The position numbers and the translations under genes were made by a program. A DNA stretch of 62,055 nucleotides, the filler included, from Globobulimina sp. (lineage: Eukaryota): assembly GCA_003354225.1 (NCBI GenBank). It is 24 parts of 24 records of this genome, joined end to end, with 100 filler letters (N's around TTAATTAATTAA, not from the genome) between each part and the next. Parts side by side here need not be neighbours in the genome. Positions count along the whole stretch, not along the records: positions 18,136 to 20,625 come from PIVH01006361.1; 23 more parts are not named here. One strand, given 5' to 3'. This document shows positions 15,546 to 21,046 of this stretch, in pieces. The notes below the pieces were generated by a model. The model made no database searches. It had not been told where the DNA came from and worked only from the letters and a program-made list of their open reading frames with translations. Within the stretch, counting starts at the first letter, position 1. Each line of letters starts with the position of its first letter.

Positions 15546-15821
15546 TTAATAAAATATGGCGTGAATATCGAGCAGTGCCATGATGGGACAACGCCATTAT
15601 ACCATGCGACATCGCGTGGACACATCCAGATTGTTCAAACCTTATTAACTGAGAAAGCAAAGGTCGATGCAATAAACAATAAGGGATGGACATGTCTGAT
15701 GAATGCCGCTTATTACTGGAATATAACGCAAATCCAGACATTGCGCGCAATGCATTTGATGGCAGCCCACAAAAAAAAGGTATTTTGTCAAACATTTTCA
15801 GCGTTTAACATTTATTTATAA
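15546..15821 (+). CDS. Ankyrin repeat fragment
   Basis: GTTPLYHATSRGHIQIVQTLL..AKVDAINNKGWTCLMNAA. Confidence 0.8.
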   Translation, partial: LIKYGVNIEQCHDGTTPLYHATSRGHIQIVQTLLTEKAKVDAINNKGWTCLMNAAYYWNITQIQTLRAMHLMAAHKKKVFCQTFSAFNIYL

Positions 15822-16023
15822 GGTAAACGAGAACGATACGATATGGTTTGCCGTGTCGCTTAATGTGGAAACAAGAAAAGAATACCGTACAATGGACGGA
15901 TTGGTATGTTCTATAAATAACGAGAGAGATATCAAGAAAAACGAATGAAAAACGACCCATTCCTAGCCAGCAGCGGCAAAAACAAATCAGTTAAATACGT
16001 GTGAATCTGACACATCAAATGTC

Positions 16024-18035
16024 ATGAACTTACCCTTTGTGCACACTATGCAGGCGAATATGAGTGGGGAGGAGCTGCAGAAAGCAGCCAAGAAGAAGGA
16101 GACCGAGCGGGCGGACCAGATCGAAATGTACAAGGCCTACGAGGAGATGTTCGGCGTGGAAGAGGCCGCCGGAATGATGGGCTTCGACCCCGCCGAGGTG
16201 AAACGCGTGGGCATCGAGGCCATATTTGAGCGCTTATTGGAGGAGGAGAGGCGCAAGAAATTAGACCGCGAGGCCGCAGAAGCTGCGCGCAGTGGAGGTG
16301 GCGGCGACGCGTACGATTATTCGCAAGAAATGCAATACGCGCAACAGGCACAGGCGCAGTCCTTAAGCACTGGCACCGAGTACAACGACAACTTAGTGGA
16401 CCACGACACCGCTGTGGGCACCACGCACACCGCCGGAGGTGGCACGGTGTCGCGTCCCCCGCCGAGCCACGTCAGCGAGAATGCGTGCATCTTCGTGGGC
16501 GACTTGCATCCGTCGGTGACGCGCAGTGACTTGCTCTCCGTGTTCAGCCAGATTGGCAGTGTGTGCTGGATGCAGTTATTCGACTGCCACGCCCAAATGA
16601 ACCGGCCCTTCAACTTCGCCTTCGTGTATTTCGAGGACTTGCTGTGTGCCCGCAACGCGATCCAGACCCTAAATTACACCAAGTTCTATGGCTCGCCGTG
16701 CCGTTTGATGTGGAAACAAGAGAAGAATACGGTGCAATGGACGGACTGCAACATAATTGTCAAGAACCTGCCGCCCAACACCGACAGTCGAATCCTGCAC
16801 AGCGTGTTCAGCAAATTCGGCAAGATCTTGTCGTCCAAAGTGAAGACCACCGCGACTGGACGCACTTTGCCGTACGGCTACGTACAGTACGGCGCCAAGC
16901 ACGGGGCCGACGCCGCCATCATGGCCTCGGACCGCGGCGAGCTGTCGGTCAGCGGCCACATGCTAACCGCAGAATGGTTCAAATCGCGCGAAGACCGCGC
17001 CTTCCGCCAGATTTATGTCAAGAACATCCCGTCCAACTGGAGCGACACGGACTTGCTGAACCTGTTCGAGGCGCAGACTTTGGGCAAAATCAAGTCCTTC
17101 ACAGTCAAGCATTCGCCGTACGGCCGCTGGGCCTGTATCAGTTTCCACGAACCGCACCACGCCGTGAAGGCCATCGAGAAACTAAACAACTGCCCGACGG
17201 GCGACCCCATCTCGCCCACTCTGTCCGTGTCGCGCTTTATGTACAAAACGGAGCGCGACAAGTTCAAAACCAACGAACTGGAAAACAACAACGTCGGCGG
17301 CCACGGCTCGCAGGCGGCGCATTGCCACGTTGCGCCGGAACAATGCTACTCCATCTATGTCGGCAATGTGCCGTTGCAGTTGACGGACCAGCACATGCGG
17401 CAATTATTTGAGCCGTTTGGCGCCGTGATCTCTGCCGCCGTGGTGCAGAAAACGCAGGATTACAAGTACGGATTTGTCAATTTCCAGCAACCGCAGGACG
17501 CGGCGCGAGCGTTGGTGACAATGAACGGGAAGTCGATTGGCGGCAAGACGTTGCAGGTCAAGCCGGCCAACACCGACATGTCCAAAGCCATCGCCATAAC
17601 GCAGGCGGCCACGCACAGTCACAGTCAGAGTCAGAGCCAGACGCAGCTCGTCAATGTGCAGTCGCATCAGCATCAGCATCAGAATCAGCATCGGAGTGGG
17701 AGTCGGAGTGGGAACGGGATGGAGAATGTGCTGGTTGCCGCCAATCCGGTGGCTGGCAATAAGGCGTCGCCGAATATGACGCACCAGCAAGCAAAGGACA
17801 TCTTGAACGTTGACGGGAAGAAGGAAATACTGTGGAAGGTGCAGTACGGAGAGGACTGGCATGAATATGATACGACTTTGGCCGCCATTGTGGAGCAGCT
17901 AGCCATTGGCGAACAGATTCAAATCACGTTGGCGGATTCCAATTATATTATCACTCGCATTCAGCAGCAACAGGCGATGCAGAAAAACTGTGCCAGCGGC
18001 ACCATGCGCAAAGTTGTGCGGTCTACGCGCGATTT
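16024..18035 (+). CDS. PABP-like 4xRRM protein with a C-terminal WWE-like domain, 3'-truncated
   Basis: RRM1 IFVGDLHP..PCRLMW; RRM2 NIIVKNL..FGKILSSKV..YGYV; RRM3 QIYVKNI; RRM4 IYVGNV..YGFVNF. C-terminal W..WHEYD..Y..MQKN..SGTMRKVVR. Confidence 0.85.
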
Positions 18036-18196
18036 NNNNNNNNNNNNNNNNNNNNNNNNNNNNNNNNNNNNNNNNNNNNTTAATTAATTAANNNNNNNNN
18101 NNNNNNNNNNNNNNNNNNNNNNNNNNNNNNNNNNNTTTAAAGAGCGTTGGAGAAGCATTTTGTTGGTTGGTAACCACCATAGTAAAGAAAGCAAGC

Positions 18197-18323
18197 TTTC
18201 TGAGCGACCGCAATCGCAGACGCAATCTCTATCAGATTGAGATACCGAGTCAATGTCTTGTTTTTGTTTCTGATTATAATCATATATTTAATGGTGTTTT
18301 TAAAACAGTTTCAAATTTGTGGG
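18197..18323. repeat. Left arm of ~130-bp inverted repeat
   Basis: Reverse complement of 20489..20625 apart from a few substitutions and one ~10-nt indel. Confidence 0.95.
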
Positions 18324-18458
18324 ATTTATAGTTATTTGTATTTAAATTAAAACAGGTTTAAAATTCTTTCATTTACGTTTTCTGTAATTATTTTGATTTG
18401 TTGTAATTATTTATAACCAGAATTTCTGTGATATTATGTTTTTCATCACATCTGCAAC

Positions 18459-20434
18459 ATGTCTGACTTGGACAATGAAGAGACAAAACTGCCCACTAAC
18501 AACCAAGAGCCGCACTCAGGAGGTTGGAGATTACAAATCTCGTCAGAACACCGTCTACGTTCTGAGAACCTCGCATTTGACATCGATGTTTGGTATCCAA
18601 TATTAGAAAAATTTACATTTAAAACCATATTCCTTCCGTTCAAAAGACGCGAAGCAATCGCAATTATCCATTATTACCAAACTAAATACATTCGAAATGG
18701 TCCAGCTTCCACCCCATTATTGACAGCCTATGATGTGAAAATATTGAATGAGTTACAAGCAGAAATTGCGAAGATCCTAAACGACAAAGATTACCACTTT
18801 GCAGAATGTGGCGCGTTTATGAGATTATGTGGTCGCTCCCCAAAAGATGCAGAACCTTTAAACCGCGATAAAATCCGCAATAAATACAAGACAAACTTAG
18901 AAAATCTATTAAATGGCAACAATGCTCAAAATATCAAATACCCAAAGACTGCAAACACAAAATTGATCGCCATAGCCAATACACAGTGGCTTAAGATTGA
19001 AGAAGCAGCGGATGCAATGAATCAATTGTTGTCATCGGAGAGAGTCTACACTGATCTTCATGACTGGATTAAATATGGCGAACCTGAACAGATTGTGTTT
19101 CGTGTCTGGTGCAATGAATTGTCATTAGATTATGAGTTCCGATGTTTTATACATGACAACAAAATGACTGCCATCTCACAGTATGATCACTATGCAATAT
19201 ATCCATATTTGAAAGCGCAGAAAGAGAGAATTAAAGAGGCATTGGTTGCGAAATGGAAACAAGTGCACCAATATATACTGCAGGATGAGTATTGCATTGA
19301 TTTTGGATATGCAGTACATAAAAAGCAAGTTATTGTGATCGAGATATCGCCATTTAGGAATTGTACCGGAGCCGCATGTTTCCATTGGAAGTTGGATCAT
19401 GATGTACTGTTTGGAGTGGACGGGAGTAAGCAAATTGAGTTTCGATTAAACGAGACATTGCATCCGCAAATAGATGATTTGGTAGAGGCAAACTGGGAAT
19501 TGAGGTTTATATATTTTTTTATGAGTCTATGCTATGCTGACCAATATCTTTTTTATTGTATAGATGGTGGACCAAAAATGATCCTGAACCTTATTGGAGT
19601 TTATATGATGAAATAAAAGATGATGCGGCTGACACTGATGCGGATAACAGAGTACATTATGGAATAATGGCGTTGATATTTTCTATTTCGATTGGTGTAG
19701 TTGCTGTGGTTTGGTACTTTCATACAATTTGGGGTATTGTATTGGCGGTGGTTGTGTTGATTGGTGTGTTGTTTGATGGGATGTACTTATTTTGTTATGG
19801 TGGTGATGACGTGACAGAGGATGATGATGATGTGGCTGTGGACTTAGATGACGTGGAGAGACCATTAAAATATATGGAGTTTGATCCAAATGCAGGGCAT
19901 TTGGCAGATATTAAACAAATTGATGAGAGAGTCAATAATTCGACATATGTGTTGTTTGTGTATGGAACATTGAAAAGAAATTTTCATTGGAATCATAAAT
20001 TTCTGTCTCGTGGAAGTGTATTTATTGGAAAAGCAAAAACAGTGAATAGGTTCGCATTGGTTATGGGCGATTGCAACGTACCGTATGTTTTAGATTTTGA
20101 TGCGGAAAAAGAAGGAAAAGATCTAGAAATTGGTGAGAATATATTGGGTGAACTGTGGCATATTGATTATGAAACATTGGTTGGTTTGGATGATTACGAA
20201 GGATGCAACAAAGGACATTATAAAAGGAAAAAAATTGATATTGTTTTGATTGACAGCAACAACATAATCAAAGCAAACATTTATATGAAAGCAGATGTTG
20301 CAAATATAGATTTATCAAAAGCAGAATGTTTAAATGAATATGATTATGAATATCATAAGAAATATTATTCGCCAATCAAACACATCCAAGTCAAACAACT
20401 TGCGTATTTGGGAGAGGATTTTAATAGAACATGA
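18459..20434 (+). CDS. Cdc123/R2K-like ATP-grasp - hydrophobic hairpin - GGACT/AIG2-like cyclotransferase fusion (638 aa), intron 19505..19563
   Basis: ATP-grasp motifs FMRLCGRSPKD, EFRCFI, ISQYD, IDF..VIEISPF..TGAACFHW. Cyclotransferase motifs LFVYGTLK, GELW, LDDYEG..YKR. A 59-nt GT..AG intron gives the in-frame join ELR/WWT. Confidence 0.85.
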
Positions 20435-20488
20435 ATTGTAGAAATGTTTAATATCGGATATTCATTAAAATTGTATTGTTTTCAAATA

Positions 20489-20625
20489 CCCATAAATTCG
20501 AAACTGTTCTAAAAACACCATTAAATATATGATTATAATCAGAAACAAAAACAACAACAATTAAGACATTGACTCGGTATCTCAATCTGATAGAGATTGC
20601 GTCTGCGACTACGGTCGCTCAGAAA
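20489..20625. repeat. Right arm of ~130-bp inverted repeat (runs to contig end)
   Basis: Reverse complement of 18197..18323. Confidence 0.95.
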
Positions 20626-20725: not shown

Positions 20726-21046
20726 GCGCACCCAAGACATAACATACTATTACGTGGAGGACAACACCATTGGATGTTAATGAATAATGCGATGGCAAAT
20801 TCCGATCCAAACAAATATAGCACCAATGATCCTGAATTGTGGTTAATATATGAGTTTATTGCTGGGCTGATAGGAATTAATGAAGCAGTTAAACGATTAA
20901 ATAACGAAATTAAACGATGTGCAAATTGTTTAAAATCGGATATTTCACTGAAACGTTGTTCAAGATGTAAACATGTGTATTATTGCAGTATTTGCTGTCA
21001 ACGTGGTAATTGGAAAACGCATAAGCAAAACTGTCGGAAATCTTGA
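20726..21046 (+). CDS. MYND zinc finger protein, C-terminal fragment
   Basis: CANC..LKRCSRCKHVYYCSICCQRGNWKTHKQNC. Confidence 0.9.
   Translation, partial: AHPRHNILLRGGQHHWMLMNNAMANSDPNKYSTNDPELWLIYEFIAGLIGINEAVKRLNNEIKRCANCLKSDISLKRCSRCKHVYYCSICCQRGNWKTHKQNCRKS

Follow-up and report, generated by a model that had tools for sequence, protein, structure and literature searches.

A foraminiferal gene from a eukaryote-wide family that joins a divergent Cdc123-type ATP-grasp domain to a GGACT-type domain

A single gene of the foraminiferan Globobulimina sp. encodes a 638-aa protein in which a divergent, non-canonical Cdc123/D123 (R2K.1-like) ATP-grasp domain is joined to a GGACT-type domain. It is a member of a eukaryote-wide, uncharacterised family of the same design. 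As judged from alignments, both predicted sets of catalytic residues are near-invariant across the fused family. The window that we analysed, a stretch of 62,055 nucleotides, strings together 24 contigs that are unrelated to one another and each about 2.49 kb long, with N-TTAATTAATTAA-N spacers between them; the genomic context of the gene is positions 18136-20625 only.

ORF and splice analysis of this contig gives a single two-exon gene on the + strand (Table 1). An ORF scan of the same strand returns two frames, 18459-19616 (385 aa) and 19556-20434 (292 aa), which the earlier note had read as one gene interrupted by a short intron. This reading is borne out. The intron carries a CTGAC branch-like site and a T-rich tract; once it is removed, the spliced CDS has 1917 nt and zero internal stops, and if it is kept, the frame ends at 19616 with a 385-aa product devoid of GGACT. 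The peptide at the splice junction, ...EANWEL-R-WWTKNDPEPYW, agrees without any indel with the transcriptome-derived foraminiferal proteins P0003 and P0004. We examined the junction 19504/19564 in assembled contigs of four runs. In the best DNA-like run, X1, a 1190-nt contig (19263-20452) is unbroken across the intron; in X3, X6 and X8, from three other studies, one contig each lacks exactly the 59 intron nucleotides. The X3 contig, of 2020 nt, begins at 18454, near the start of exon 1, and joins 18454-19502 to 19562-20511, hence contains the entire CDS. We call the intron-less contigs transcript-like, the kinds of these runs being guessed at best. The two frames of prokaryote-style ORF calling and the D123-only and GGACT-only fragments in databases might suggest an artefact, with either two genes taken for one or a chimera made in assembly. 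This can be practically dismissed and we reject it: the X1 contig is continuous, one spliced X3 contig holds the whole CDS, no chimeric join is seen in the contigs of the four runs, transcriptomes of other species contain fused proteins of full length, and the fragments pair up by contig or by Trinity gene. The gene structure and the identities of its domains are virtually certain.

Table 1 Features of the fused gene and its flanks, in positions of the window.
Feature	Position	Strand	Residues	Remarks
Inverted repeat, left arm	18197..18323	.		Copy of a dispersed repeat
Exon 1	18459..19504	+		ATG at 18459; 348 codons + 2 nt; Cdc123/D123-type ATP-grasp domain
D123-type ATP-grasp domain	18525..19499	+	23-347	Family HMM envelope
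Pfam D123 core	18966-19391	+	170-311	
Intron	19505..19563	+		59 nt, GT..AG
Exon 2	19564..20434	+		End of D123 domain, hydrophobic hairpin, acidic linker, GGACT domain; stop TGA 20432-20434
Hydrophobic stretch	19649..19804	+	378-429	Kyte-Doolittle; about two helices of 21-23 residues each, short HTIWG turn; predicted membrane hairpin
Acidic linker DDVTEDDDDVAVDLDDVE	19805..19858	+	430-447	Read from sequence
GGACT/AIG2-like cyclotransferase domain	19952..20296	+	479-593	Pfam
Conserved C-terminal motif YSPIKHIQVKQLAYLGEDF	20366..20422	+	617-635	Family-specific HIQVKQ..Y
Inverted repeat, right arm	20489..20625	.		Reaches contig end, may be cut off

The arms of an inverted repeat flank the gene on both sides. 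The left arm is sequenced 3.6-4.7 times as deeply as the gene, and at position 18326 other contigs part from this one. Elsewhere in the window we found no paralogues of the gene and no copies of the repeat. Rfam and tRNA scans of the contig gave no tRNA and two sub-threshold Rfam matches at chance level.

Pfam searches recover the domains proposed in the earlier note, all of them above cut-off: D123 (E 3.6e-18, 66.2 bits against 24, gathering score passed), R2K_2 on exon 1 (E 5.4e-7, 30.0 bits against 26.2) and GGACT (E 7.8e-15, 55.9 bits against 22.8); AIG2_2 scores 27.1 against a cut-off of 27. NCBIfam has no family for either half. The motifs named in that note are likewise all in place in the spliced protein: RSPKD at aa 126-130, EFRCFI at 226-231, ISQYD at 239-243, IEISPF at 294-299, FVYGTLK at 480-486 and LDDYEG at 557-562.

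The key residues predicted for the ATP-grasp half are R122, K129, E226-x-R228, D281 and E295-x-S297. Across 46 fused proteins, R122 and K129, both within FMRLCGRSPKD, are kept in 43; E-x-R, the Asp and the Glu are kept in all 46, and the Ser in 44. The name R2K refers to human K104, called an 'absolutely conserved' Lys in the accessible text of PMC4431377, together with a downstream K/R of the RAGNYA domain. R122 is equated with K104 by motif only, and it is an Arg, not a Lys. E226-F-R228 aligns with the EFR of human CDC123. HMMER places D281 one column off human D233, the acidic residue of strand 4, so that their equivalence is probable. In the last strand, where (D/E)-x-N would be expected (human D246-x-N248), the protein has E295-I-S297. 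According to the same text by Burroughs et al. (PMC4431377), this Asn is occasionally swapped for other polar residues. On the fused side of the D123 tree, 135 of 138 rows have E-x-S and 137 of 138 share a GEPEQ loop, whereas E-x-N is kept in 41 of 41 rows of a standalone sister clade. The change of the putative Mg-binding Asn to Ser in the whole fused clade could mean an altered chemistry rather than standard ligation.

Human CDC123 is retrieved by a PDB sequence search with E 1.1e-13 and 54.5 bits, aligned over aa 211-311 only; S. pombe CDC123 reaches 19.9 bits. The Pfam D123 match is partial as well, covering profile positions 105-253 of 300. On these grounds we reject canonical Cdc123 orthology. 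A second, rapidly evolving set of CDC123 proteins in amoeboid eukaryotes is mentioned in the available text of Burroughs et al. 2015 (PMC4431377); the standalone sister clade is a candidate for it. The fold of the ATP-grasp half nonetheless appears to be of Cdc123 type in predicted models, made for relatives and not for the window protein. The model of P0003, 80% identical over exon 1, matches 4zgp (Foldseek 1.8e-13, TMt 0.72), and that of P0203 superposes on the Cdc123 structures 8phv and 8phd with a VIA Z of 22.1 and an rmsd of 3.4 Å over 245-246 residues. Against D-Ala-D-Ala ligases a homologue model gives Z of about 9, compared with 22 for Cdc123.

GGACT removes gamma-glutamyl groups bearing a free alpha-amine, with release of 5-oxoproline. 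In the C-terminal half, the substrate-binding motif YG(T/S)L is present as YGTL at aa 482-485, and the predicted catalytic residue, Glu561 (codon 20198-20200), aligns with E82 of human GGACT (3jub), the residue mutated in 3jud (E82Q); the claim of an intact catalytic Glu is thereby upheld. Sequence matches in the PDB are mouse GGACT (6.3e-7) and human GGACT (2.9e-5), and a homologue model matches 3juc (Foldseek 8.1e-9, TMt 0.77). The H, K, Q and Y of the C-terminal motif are kept in 41-43 of the 46 fused proteins. In the model, whose range 366-498 aligns with the entire human GGACT chain, this motif would sit in the C-terminal part of the GGACT fold. According to the accessible part of a preprint (10.1101/2025.01.15.633182), Glu82 is the residue by which enzymes of the GGACT family cleave gamma-glutamyl derivatives; PMC4000134, as far as its available text goes, concerns glutaminyl cyclotransferase and is not relevant here.

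The fusion is widespread. Both Pfam domains are present in 104 of 120 relatives among the matches listed in a profile search. Fused relatives come from foraminifera, amoebozoans, a heterolobosean, stramenopiles, a malawimonad and holozoans, and thus span at least six major eukaryotic lineages; the nearest homologues of the gene are foraminiferal. All 8 matches to exon 2 longer than 506 aa carry both domains, and in the set of long matches D123 is found in 52 of 52 and GGACT in 46 of 52. In the D123 tree, a branch with SH-like support of 99 has on its other side 37 of 41 'D123-only with tail' rows and 0 fused rows. Three pairs of fragments (P0267/P0018, P0271/P0253 and P0273/P0250) each share a contig, as judged by its length, or a Trinity gene; we therefore read D123-only and GGACT-only fragments as gene-calling artefacts and reject natural split forms. 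Among prokaryote genomes, 105 pattern matches contained 0 relatives, which, for a single D123 pattern, is weak evidence of absence. In IMG/VR, 80 of 113 relatives were retained, all matching the GGACT part only (residues ~441-626), with no fused form among them.

The architecture is therefore common and not rare, which is half of what would have refuted the earlier note; its public annotation is by domain name only: the names of relatives are automatic, such as 'gamma-glutamylcyclotransferase' or 'AIG2-like family', and the family as such is uncharacterised. The note's other expectation, that the architecture is undescribed, agrees with our literature searches, which found no paper on a D123-GGACT fusion. 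The text and one supplementary file of Burroughs et al. 2015, figures excepted, do not contain AIG2, GGCT, GGACT or cyclotransferase.

Between the two domains, a Kyte-Doolittle scan (window 19, threshold 1.6) delimits a hydrophobic stretch, and the acidic linker noted earlier does follow it. AF2 predicts two helices at the corresponding place in P0003 (357-410 and 412-438, pLDDT 62-87), a protein 76-80% identical to ours. The flanks of the stretch are basic in the relatives P0005, P0006, P0008, P0009 and P0010; those of the window protein itself are acidic. Such a helical hairpin of some 50 aa, predicted in foraminifera and in roughly one third of the relatives, would anchor the enzyme in a membrane and leave the two domains on the same, presumably cytosolic, side. 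Of 96 fused relatives, 33 have a hydrophobic linker and 63 do not, so we take the hairpin for a putative lineage-specific anchor. Of the transmembrane hairpin suggested at the outset, the predicted two-helix hydrophobic stretch and the predicted placement of the domains on one side stand, but not its place in the core design. With or without it, the two domains are predicted to pack as one compact unit, in single-chain AF2 models of P0003 (with hairpin, pTM 0.83) and P0203 (43-aa linker, pTM 0.92, pLDDT 94.3) and on the evidence of pTM.

We tentatively favour, at somewhat less than an even chance, a bifunctional enzyme whose two halves both work on a single gamma-glutamyl amide. The 2015 paper PMC4431377, in its accessible text, predicts that R2K ATP-grasps are ligases for peptides or amides. 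In such an enzyme, the ATP-grasp half would spend ATP on activating a carboxylate, for which the gamma-carboxyl of free L-glutamate is the simplest candidate, and join it to the amine of a small molecule or of a protein lysine. The GGACT half would strip the gamma-glutamyl group, provided its alpha-amine is free, yielding 5-oxoproline and the amine. Together the pair would set the level of a gamma-glutamyl conjugate, by a logic that may resemble that of trypanothione synthetase-amidase, or the gamma-glutamyl protection and deprotection in butirosin synthesis. That both halves act on the same bond we infer from domain chemistry. Against it, making and then cleaving one bond would be futile cycling unless the two reactions are regulated or other steps come between them. 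The 'writer-eraser' pairing of the earlier note is accordingly kept conditional here: canonical CDC123 is described as an ATPase chaperone, and E-x-S replaces E-x-N.

It is possible, though we would not expect it, that the halves instead catalyse consecutive steps of a pathway on different bonds. In one version, GGACT acts first on a gamma-glutamyl compound, and the amine or the 5-oxoproline that it releases is taken up by the ATP-grasp. In the other, the ATP-grasp adds a gamma-glutamyl group for protection, and GGACT takes it off once further enzymes have done their part, as in butirosin synthesis, where BtrG removes a protective gamma-glutamyl group (available part of preprint 10.1101/2025.01.15.633182). 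Fusions usually join steps of one pathway; the compactness of both models and the clade-specific change of the active site, E-x-S with the GEPEQ loop, are also in line with such a sequence. However, a eukaryotic contig of 2.5 kb has no operon context, so that no partner enzymes or substrates can be inferred from it, and nothing separates consecutive steps from writing and erasing.

Unlikely, in our judgement, is a D123 domain that is no ligase but an ATP-dependent binding or chaperone module, recruiting or regulating GGACT as the sole catalyst at a protein target or a membrane. Canonical CDC123 is an ATPase chaperone that assembles eIF2, and in the accessible text of PMC12860950 no ligation is reported and the word 'ligase' occurs 0 times; eIF2 assembly is also the subject of the PDB titles 8phd and 4zgn. 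Within the literature text available to us, no ligase product or substrate was found for D123-family proteins, ATPase being the sole activity reported for CDC123. The loss of E-x-N in favour of E-x-S fits this idea, and so does the modelled fold, closer to Cdc123 than to any known ligase. The domain, however, belongs to a non-canonical Cdc123, by its partial profile match and its low score with the human protein; the catalytic positions of Burroughs et al., bar the Asn, are unchanged in 43-46 of the 46 fused proteins, and the Ser that stands in for the Asn is fixed as well. This fixation argues for a working active site, yet action as an ATPase only would conserve the same residues too.

It is very improbable that the GGACT fold is non-catalytic, serving in binding or targeting like part 2 of the Paulinella crTP and leaving the protein a membrane-anchored ATP-grasp only. 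GGCT-fold domains devoid of catalytic residues do exist in another rhizarian, as described in the accessible part of preprint 10.1101/2025.01.15.633182, and PDB 9i09 is among the structure matches, with Z 9.4. But the Glu is replaced in crTP part 2 (same preprint, available part), whereas in the 46 fused proteins YGTL is kept in 45 and the Glu82 equivalent in 44, the other 2 being gaps. Moreover, the structures closest to the homologue model are active GGACT enzymes, 3jud superposing with Z 19.4 and an rmsd of 1.7 Å over 129 residues at 31-32% identity.

The reading of one enzyme acting on one gamma-glutamyl amide has a bolder form, which we put forward as doubtful. Cdc123-like (R2K.1) ATP-grasps may make gamma-glutamyl isopeptide bonds, such as N-epsilon-(gamma-glutamyl)-lysine on proteins. 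The family would then be a self-contained writer and eraser of a reversible 'gamma-glutamylation' mark across protists, membrane-tethered in foraminifera, with E-x-S and GEPEQ co-adapted to the docked GGACT domain, or partly completed by it. More broadly, the family joins a D123 domain permanently to an enzyme of well-defined chemistry, and is conserved across eukaryotes with strictly constrained active sites. The fusion is a Rosetta-stone clue to glutamate and gamma-glutamyl amides as the substrate class, and may hint at the targets of Cdc123-like proteins. Members with a short linker that is not hydrophobic, for example from Acrasis and Planoprotostelium, are likely soluble, have models of very high confidence and should express easily. 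In the foraminiferal version, the hairpin would localise this chemistry to a membrane surface, that of an organelle or the plasma membrane.

Compared with canonical CDC123 (8phd, 4zgp), the ATP-grasp half shares the modelled fold and the E-F-R-C-F and (D/E)-x-(N/S)-P-F strands, and K129 of SPKD lines up by motif with the ATP-pocket residue R111 of the human protein (PMC12860950, accessible text). Unlike it, the fused protein aligns in sequence in the C-terminal half only, has R in place of K104, E-x-S in place of D-x-N and the clade-specific GEPEQ loop, and carries GGACT and, here, a membrane hairpin; it shows no link to eIF2. Closer is the standalone non-canonical D123 sister family of about 365-410 aa (e.g. 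P0092, P0087 and P0102), which is 33-38% identical over the whole domain, gives the same partial Pfam D123 match and has the same catalytic positions bar one. It differs by the absence of GGACT and by its conserved Asn. With human and mouse GGACT (3jub/3juc/3jud and 1vkb) the other half has in common the whole-domain fold, YGTL and the Glu82 position; in contrast to them, it forms the C-terminal domain of a longer chain, of about 500-700 aa, and bears the family-specific motif.

The concept of making and breaking one bond within a single chain has a precedent. In trypanothione synthetase-amidase and glutathionylspermidine synthetase-amidase, a single chain holds an ATP-grasp C:N ligase and a domain that cleaves the same amide, and in the former the conflicting activities are balanced within one chain (PMC2427367, available part). 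The cleaving domain of trypanothione synthetase-amidase, however, is a CHAP cysteine amidase and not a cyclotransferase, its ATP-grasp is not of D123/R2K type, the domain order is opposite and it has no membrane anchor. This parallel is functional only and implies no homology. In butirosin synthesis, going by the sources available in part, a gamma-glutamyl group is added with ATP and later taken off by BtrG, a cyclotransferase of the GGCT family; its partner ligase, BtrJ, is presumably an ATP-grasp. There, unlike in the fused family, the two are separate bacterial proteins of an antibiotic pathway, with steps of other enzymes in between.

Excision of the intron from the D123-GGACT gene yields a coding sequence of 1,917 nt for 638 residues, free of internal stops, with the protein junction ...EANWEL-R-WWTKNDPEPYW.... 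The same junction occurs, indel-free, in two full-length foraminiferal transcriptome proteins: P0003 of Bolivina argentea (649 aa; identity 80% with exon 1, 76% with exon 2) and P0004 of Nonionella stella (635 aa).

Features of the fusion gene and its flanking repeat
Feature	Position	Strand	Remarks
Inverted repeat, left arm	18197-18323		about 130 nt, brackets the gene
ORF 1	18459-19616	+	385 aa
Intron	19505-19563	+	59 nt, GT start, AG end, CTGAC branch-like site, T-rich tract
ORF 2	19556-20434	+	292 aa
Inverted repeat, right arm	20489-20625		reaches the contig end

Ten sequencing runs were found, none recorded as RNA, and four (X1, X3, X6 and X8) were compared with the gene. X1 matches best among the runs, at 0.87 of sampled words; its 1,190-nt contig continues unbroken through 19263-20452, across the intron and into both exons, so the D123-GGACT join is not chimeric and that explanation is rejected. 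In X3, whose study and organism code differ, a 2,020-nt contig aligns in two blocks, 18454-19502 and 19562-20511, and leaves out 59 nt bounded by GT and AG. Beginning just 5 nt upstream of the ATG and running into sequencing-adaptor sequence beyond its 20511 end, it thus covers the complete coding sequence. Contigs of X6 and X8 (about 90-99% alike; guessed to be RNA) skip the same interval, so that the intron-less form is found in three of the four runs compared and the intron-bearing form in one. As the kinds of run are not recorded, we call the intron-less contigs transcript-like rather than proven RNA. Together with the open 638-residue frame they uphold the earlier note, which had read the two frames as one spliced gene and whose listed motifs all lie where it placed them.

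Upstream, the X6 contig that matches from 18455 on carries 112 unrelated bases, and an X1 variant departs before 18423; the divergence near 18455 could stem from an intron in the 5′ UTR, from an added leader, or from a divergent flank or allele. The arms of the inverted repeat are 95-97% complementary (88.7% over 142 columns when gaps are included). Depth at 18136-18254 is 3.6 (X1) to 4.7 (X3) times that of the gene and other contigs diverge exactly at the inner edge of the left arm, 18326. These observations identify the arms as copies of a dispersed repeat, perhaps of MITE or TIR type, which does not occur on the window's other contigs. Inside the gene, 18805-18847 (43 nt, encoding GRSPKDAEP) is matched by a separate X1/X3 contig (2,242 nt in X3) that diverges on both sides, probably a D123-domain paralogue of the same organism. 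Bolivina likewise has two paralogues of the fused protein, P0003 and P0007.

The 62,055-base window does not represent a single locus: its 24 contigs, each of 2,488-2,491 bases, are chained by length with N44-TTAATTAATTAA-N44 spacers, so their adjacency has no biological meaning. Since the gene lies entirely inside contig 18136-20625, neighbouring ORFs are not its genomic context, and ORFs that reach a spacer, such as 16024-18087, end there by the spacer's cut. Contig 15546-18035, with a 687-aa ORF extending into the spacer, has 53.4% G+C against 30-40% in the 23 others; possible sources are a second organism in the sample and an unusually GC-rich gene. On the contig that follows the gene's, a 90-aa ORF (20774-21046) contains a Cys/His-rich stretch, CANCLK...CSRCKHVYYCSICCQRGNWKTHKQNC, which by its pattern we take to resemble a MYND-type zinc finger.

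Both domains were recognized by Pfam, as the earlier note had anticipated. The exon 1 product, P0001, matches D123 (3.6e-18, 66.2 bits, cut-off 24; residues 170-311 aligned to positions 105-253 of the 300-position profile) and R2K_2 (30.0 bits, cut-off 26.2); the exon 2 product, P0002, matches GGACT (7.8e-15, 55.9 bits, cut-off 22.8) and AIG2_2 (27.1 bits, cut-off 27). In the PDB, exon 1 finds human CDC123 (8phd, 1.1e-13, residues 211-311 only) and, weakly, S. pombe Cdc123 (3.3e-3), and exon 2 finds mouse GGACT (1vkb, 6.3e-7) and human GGACT (3jub, 2.9e-5). The glutamate of LDDYEG, expected to be catalytic, indeed aligns with human Glu82 (counted in the alignment), the residue replaced in the E82Q mutant 3jud; a preprint describes the YG(S/T)L motif and proposes Glu82 as catalytic centre (10.1101/2025.01.15.633182).

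Given the partial profile match and the alignment with human CDC123 over the C-terminal half only, the fused D123 domain is, judged by sequence, no canonical Cdc123 orthologue. The D123-only sister family is non-canonical too: its member P0092 matches human CDC123 at only 2.7e-7, with the same partial Pfam match. In an unrooted FastTree phylogeny of 179 non-canonical D123 domains, 37 of the 41 D123-only proteins (28-65-aa tail) and no fused ones lie on one side of a branch with SH-like support of 99. A quick IQ-TREE run on 76 non-canonical rows, likewise unrooted, is concordant: its five label changes are one main split and four unfused rows within the fused group.

The catalytic features described for human CDC123 are K104, a second K/R, D233, D246-x-N248 and the arginine of E-x-R (Burroughs et al. 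2015, PMC4431377). At the probable counterparts of these positions, 43 of 46 fused proteins have R, 43 have K, all have E-x-R, D and E, and 44 have serine instead of the asparagine. Over the tree rows, E-x-S occurs in 135/138 on the fused side, against E-x-N in 41/41 of the sister clade; a GEPEQ loop is fixed on the fused side only (its G in 137/138). The combined change counts as a single evolutionary event rather than as independent correlation, and it shows an ATP-grasp pocket altered, then frozen, in the GGACT-bearing lineage. In the GGACT half of the same 46 proteins, YGTL is kept in 45, the catalytic glutamate in 44 (two gaps) and the C-terminal H..VKQ..Y motif in 41-43.

Two relatives were modelled in place of the spliced window protein. 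The P0003 model (48-row alignment; mean pLDDT 86.9, pTM 0.83) has two long helices, 357-410 and 412-438; that of P0203 from Acrasis kona (511 aa, 96 rows; pLDDT 94.3, pTM 0.92) has a 43-aa linker without a hydrophobic segment. The pTM values of these two-domain chains indicate a confidently predicted, fixed mutual arrangement. Homologue models match the folds of Cdc123 (Z 22.1, rmsd 3.4 Å, 245-246 residues) and GGACT (Z 19.4, 1.7 Å, 129 residues, 31% identity), with Z about 9 for D-Ala-D-Ala ligases, LysX and CPS.

The window protein is hydrophobic at residues 378-429, followed by an acidic run, 430-447. The linker from the NW..RW motif to FVYGTL spans 33-178 aa in 96 fused relatives; its hydrophobic span is absent in 63, 19-30 aa long in 12, 31-35 in 3 and at least 36 in 18. 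Thus the stretch taken earlier for a two-helix membrane hairpin of about 45 residues joining the domains is present, but most relatives do without it: the putative hairpin is a lineage-specific linker insertion in an otherwise soluble didomain enzyme. Such a predicted hairpin fits the earlier point that both domains share one membrane side: probably the cytosolic face, because exon 1 has no visible N-terminal hydrophobic signal and the hairpin flanks, read from sequences, are basic in several relatives.

The exon 2 search among longer proteins gave eight matches (518-700 aa), all with PF07065 and PF06094. Exon 1, used as query in an exhaustive phmmer search, had 1,943 matches at E ≤1e-3 and 120 at E ≤1e-30. 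All 52 matches of at least 480 aa from both searches contain D123 and 46 contain GGACT (E ≤1e-3), the remaining six being P0040, P0055, P0056, P0090, P0108 and P0145. A profile search (E ≤1e-20) returned 170 matches; among the 120 listed, 104 have both domains, 14 D123 only and 2 GGACT only. Single-domain entries mostly pair on the same contig or Trinity gene, and look like ORFs split by introns, as in the window gene. Sources are Foraminifera (Bolivina argentea, with its two paralogues, and Nonionella stella), the malawimonad Gefionella okellyi, Holozoa (Syssomonas multiformis, an acanthoecid choanoflagellate as cluster mate and, partially, the rotifer Didymodactylos carnosus), Amoebozoa (Planoprotostelium fungivorum, Physarum, Pelomyxa schiedti), the heterolobosean Acrasis kona and the stramenopiles Heterosigma akashiwo and Seminavis robusta. 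A eukaryotic ESM Atlas cluster of 216 members, labelled 'hypothetical protein' and commonest in rotifers, has D123 in 99% and GGACT in 13%.

The fused form is absent from the IMG/VR matches: 113 viral contigs carry standalone GGACT/AIG2-like proteins (26-42% identity to the C-terminal domain), and the 80 loci kept (L001-L080) have no D123 part. One D123 pattern found no relative in prokaryote genomes. Full-text searches, some matches being judged from titles or abstract starts, found no paper describing the fusion, and fusion-relevant words are absent from the text and one supplement, figures aside, of the clade's founding study, Burroughs et al. (PMC4431377). The architecture, supposed undescribed, is nonetheless plainly visible in public databases with many relatives, under automatic names ('gamma-glutamylcyclotransferase', 'AIG2-like family', 'hypothetical protein').

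What is shown for the window protein is that a single gene encodes two conserved catalytic domains, and that these are predicted to form a compact unit. GGACT-type enzymes remove only γ-glutamyl groups with a free α-amine. An amide-ligase role is predicted for R2K ATP-grasps (PMC4431377). The simplest joint reading, which we hold tentatively at somewhat short of even chances, is coupled writing and erasing: the ATP-grasp half would join glutamate to an amine through a γ-glutamyl-amine bond, and the GGACT half would take the γ-glutamyl group off again as 5-oxoproline. Against it count canonical CDC123, known solely as an ATPase chaperone (PMC12860950), and the Asn-to-Ser change, which may mean different chemistry. 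The two activities could instead be successive steps of a pathway rather than opposed, an arrangement we consider distinctly less probable. Somewhat less probable still is a D123 module that is no ligase, in line with canonical CDC123. A non-catalytic GGACT domain is very improbable, and an artefact, in the face of the unbroken X1 contig, hardly credible.

The window gene is an uncharacterised variant assembled from two known families, and no new kind of system. BtrJ is an ATP-grasp protein. For BtrG, γ-glutamyl protection and deprotection is established (preprint 10.1101/2025.01.15.633182). Like the proposed fusion enzyme, trypanothione synthetase-amidase unites opposing activities in a single chain, their balance being set by the domain arrangement and the C-terminus (PMC2427367).
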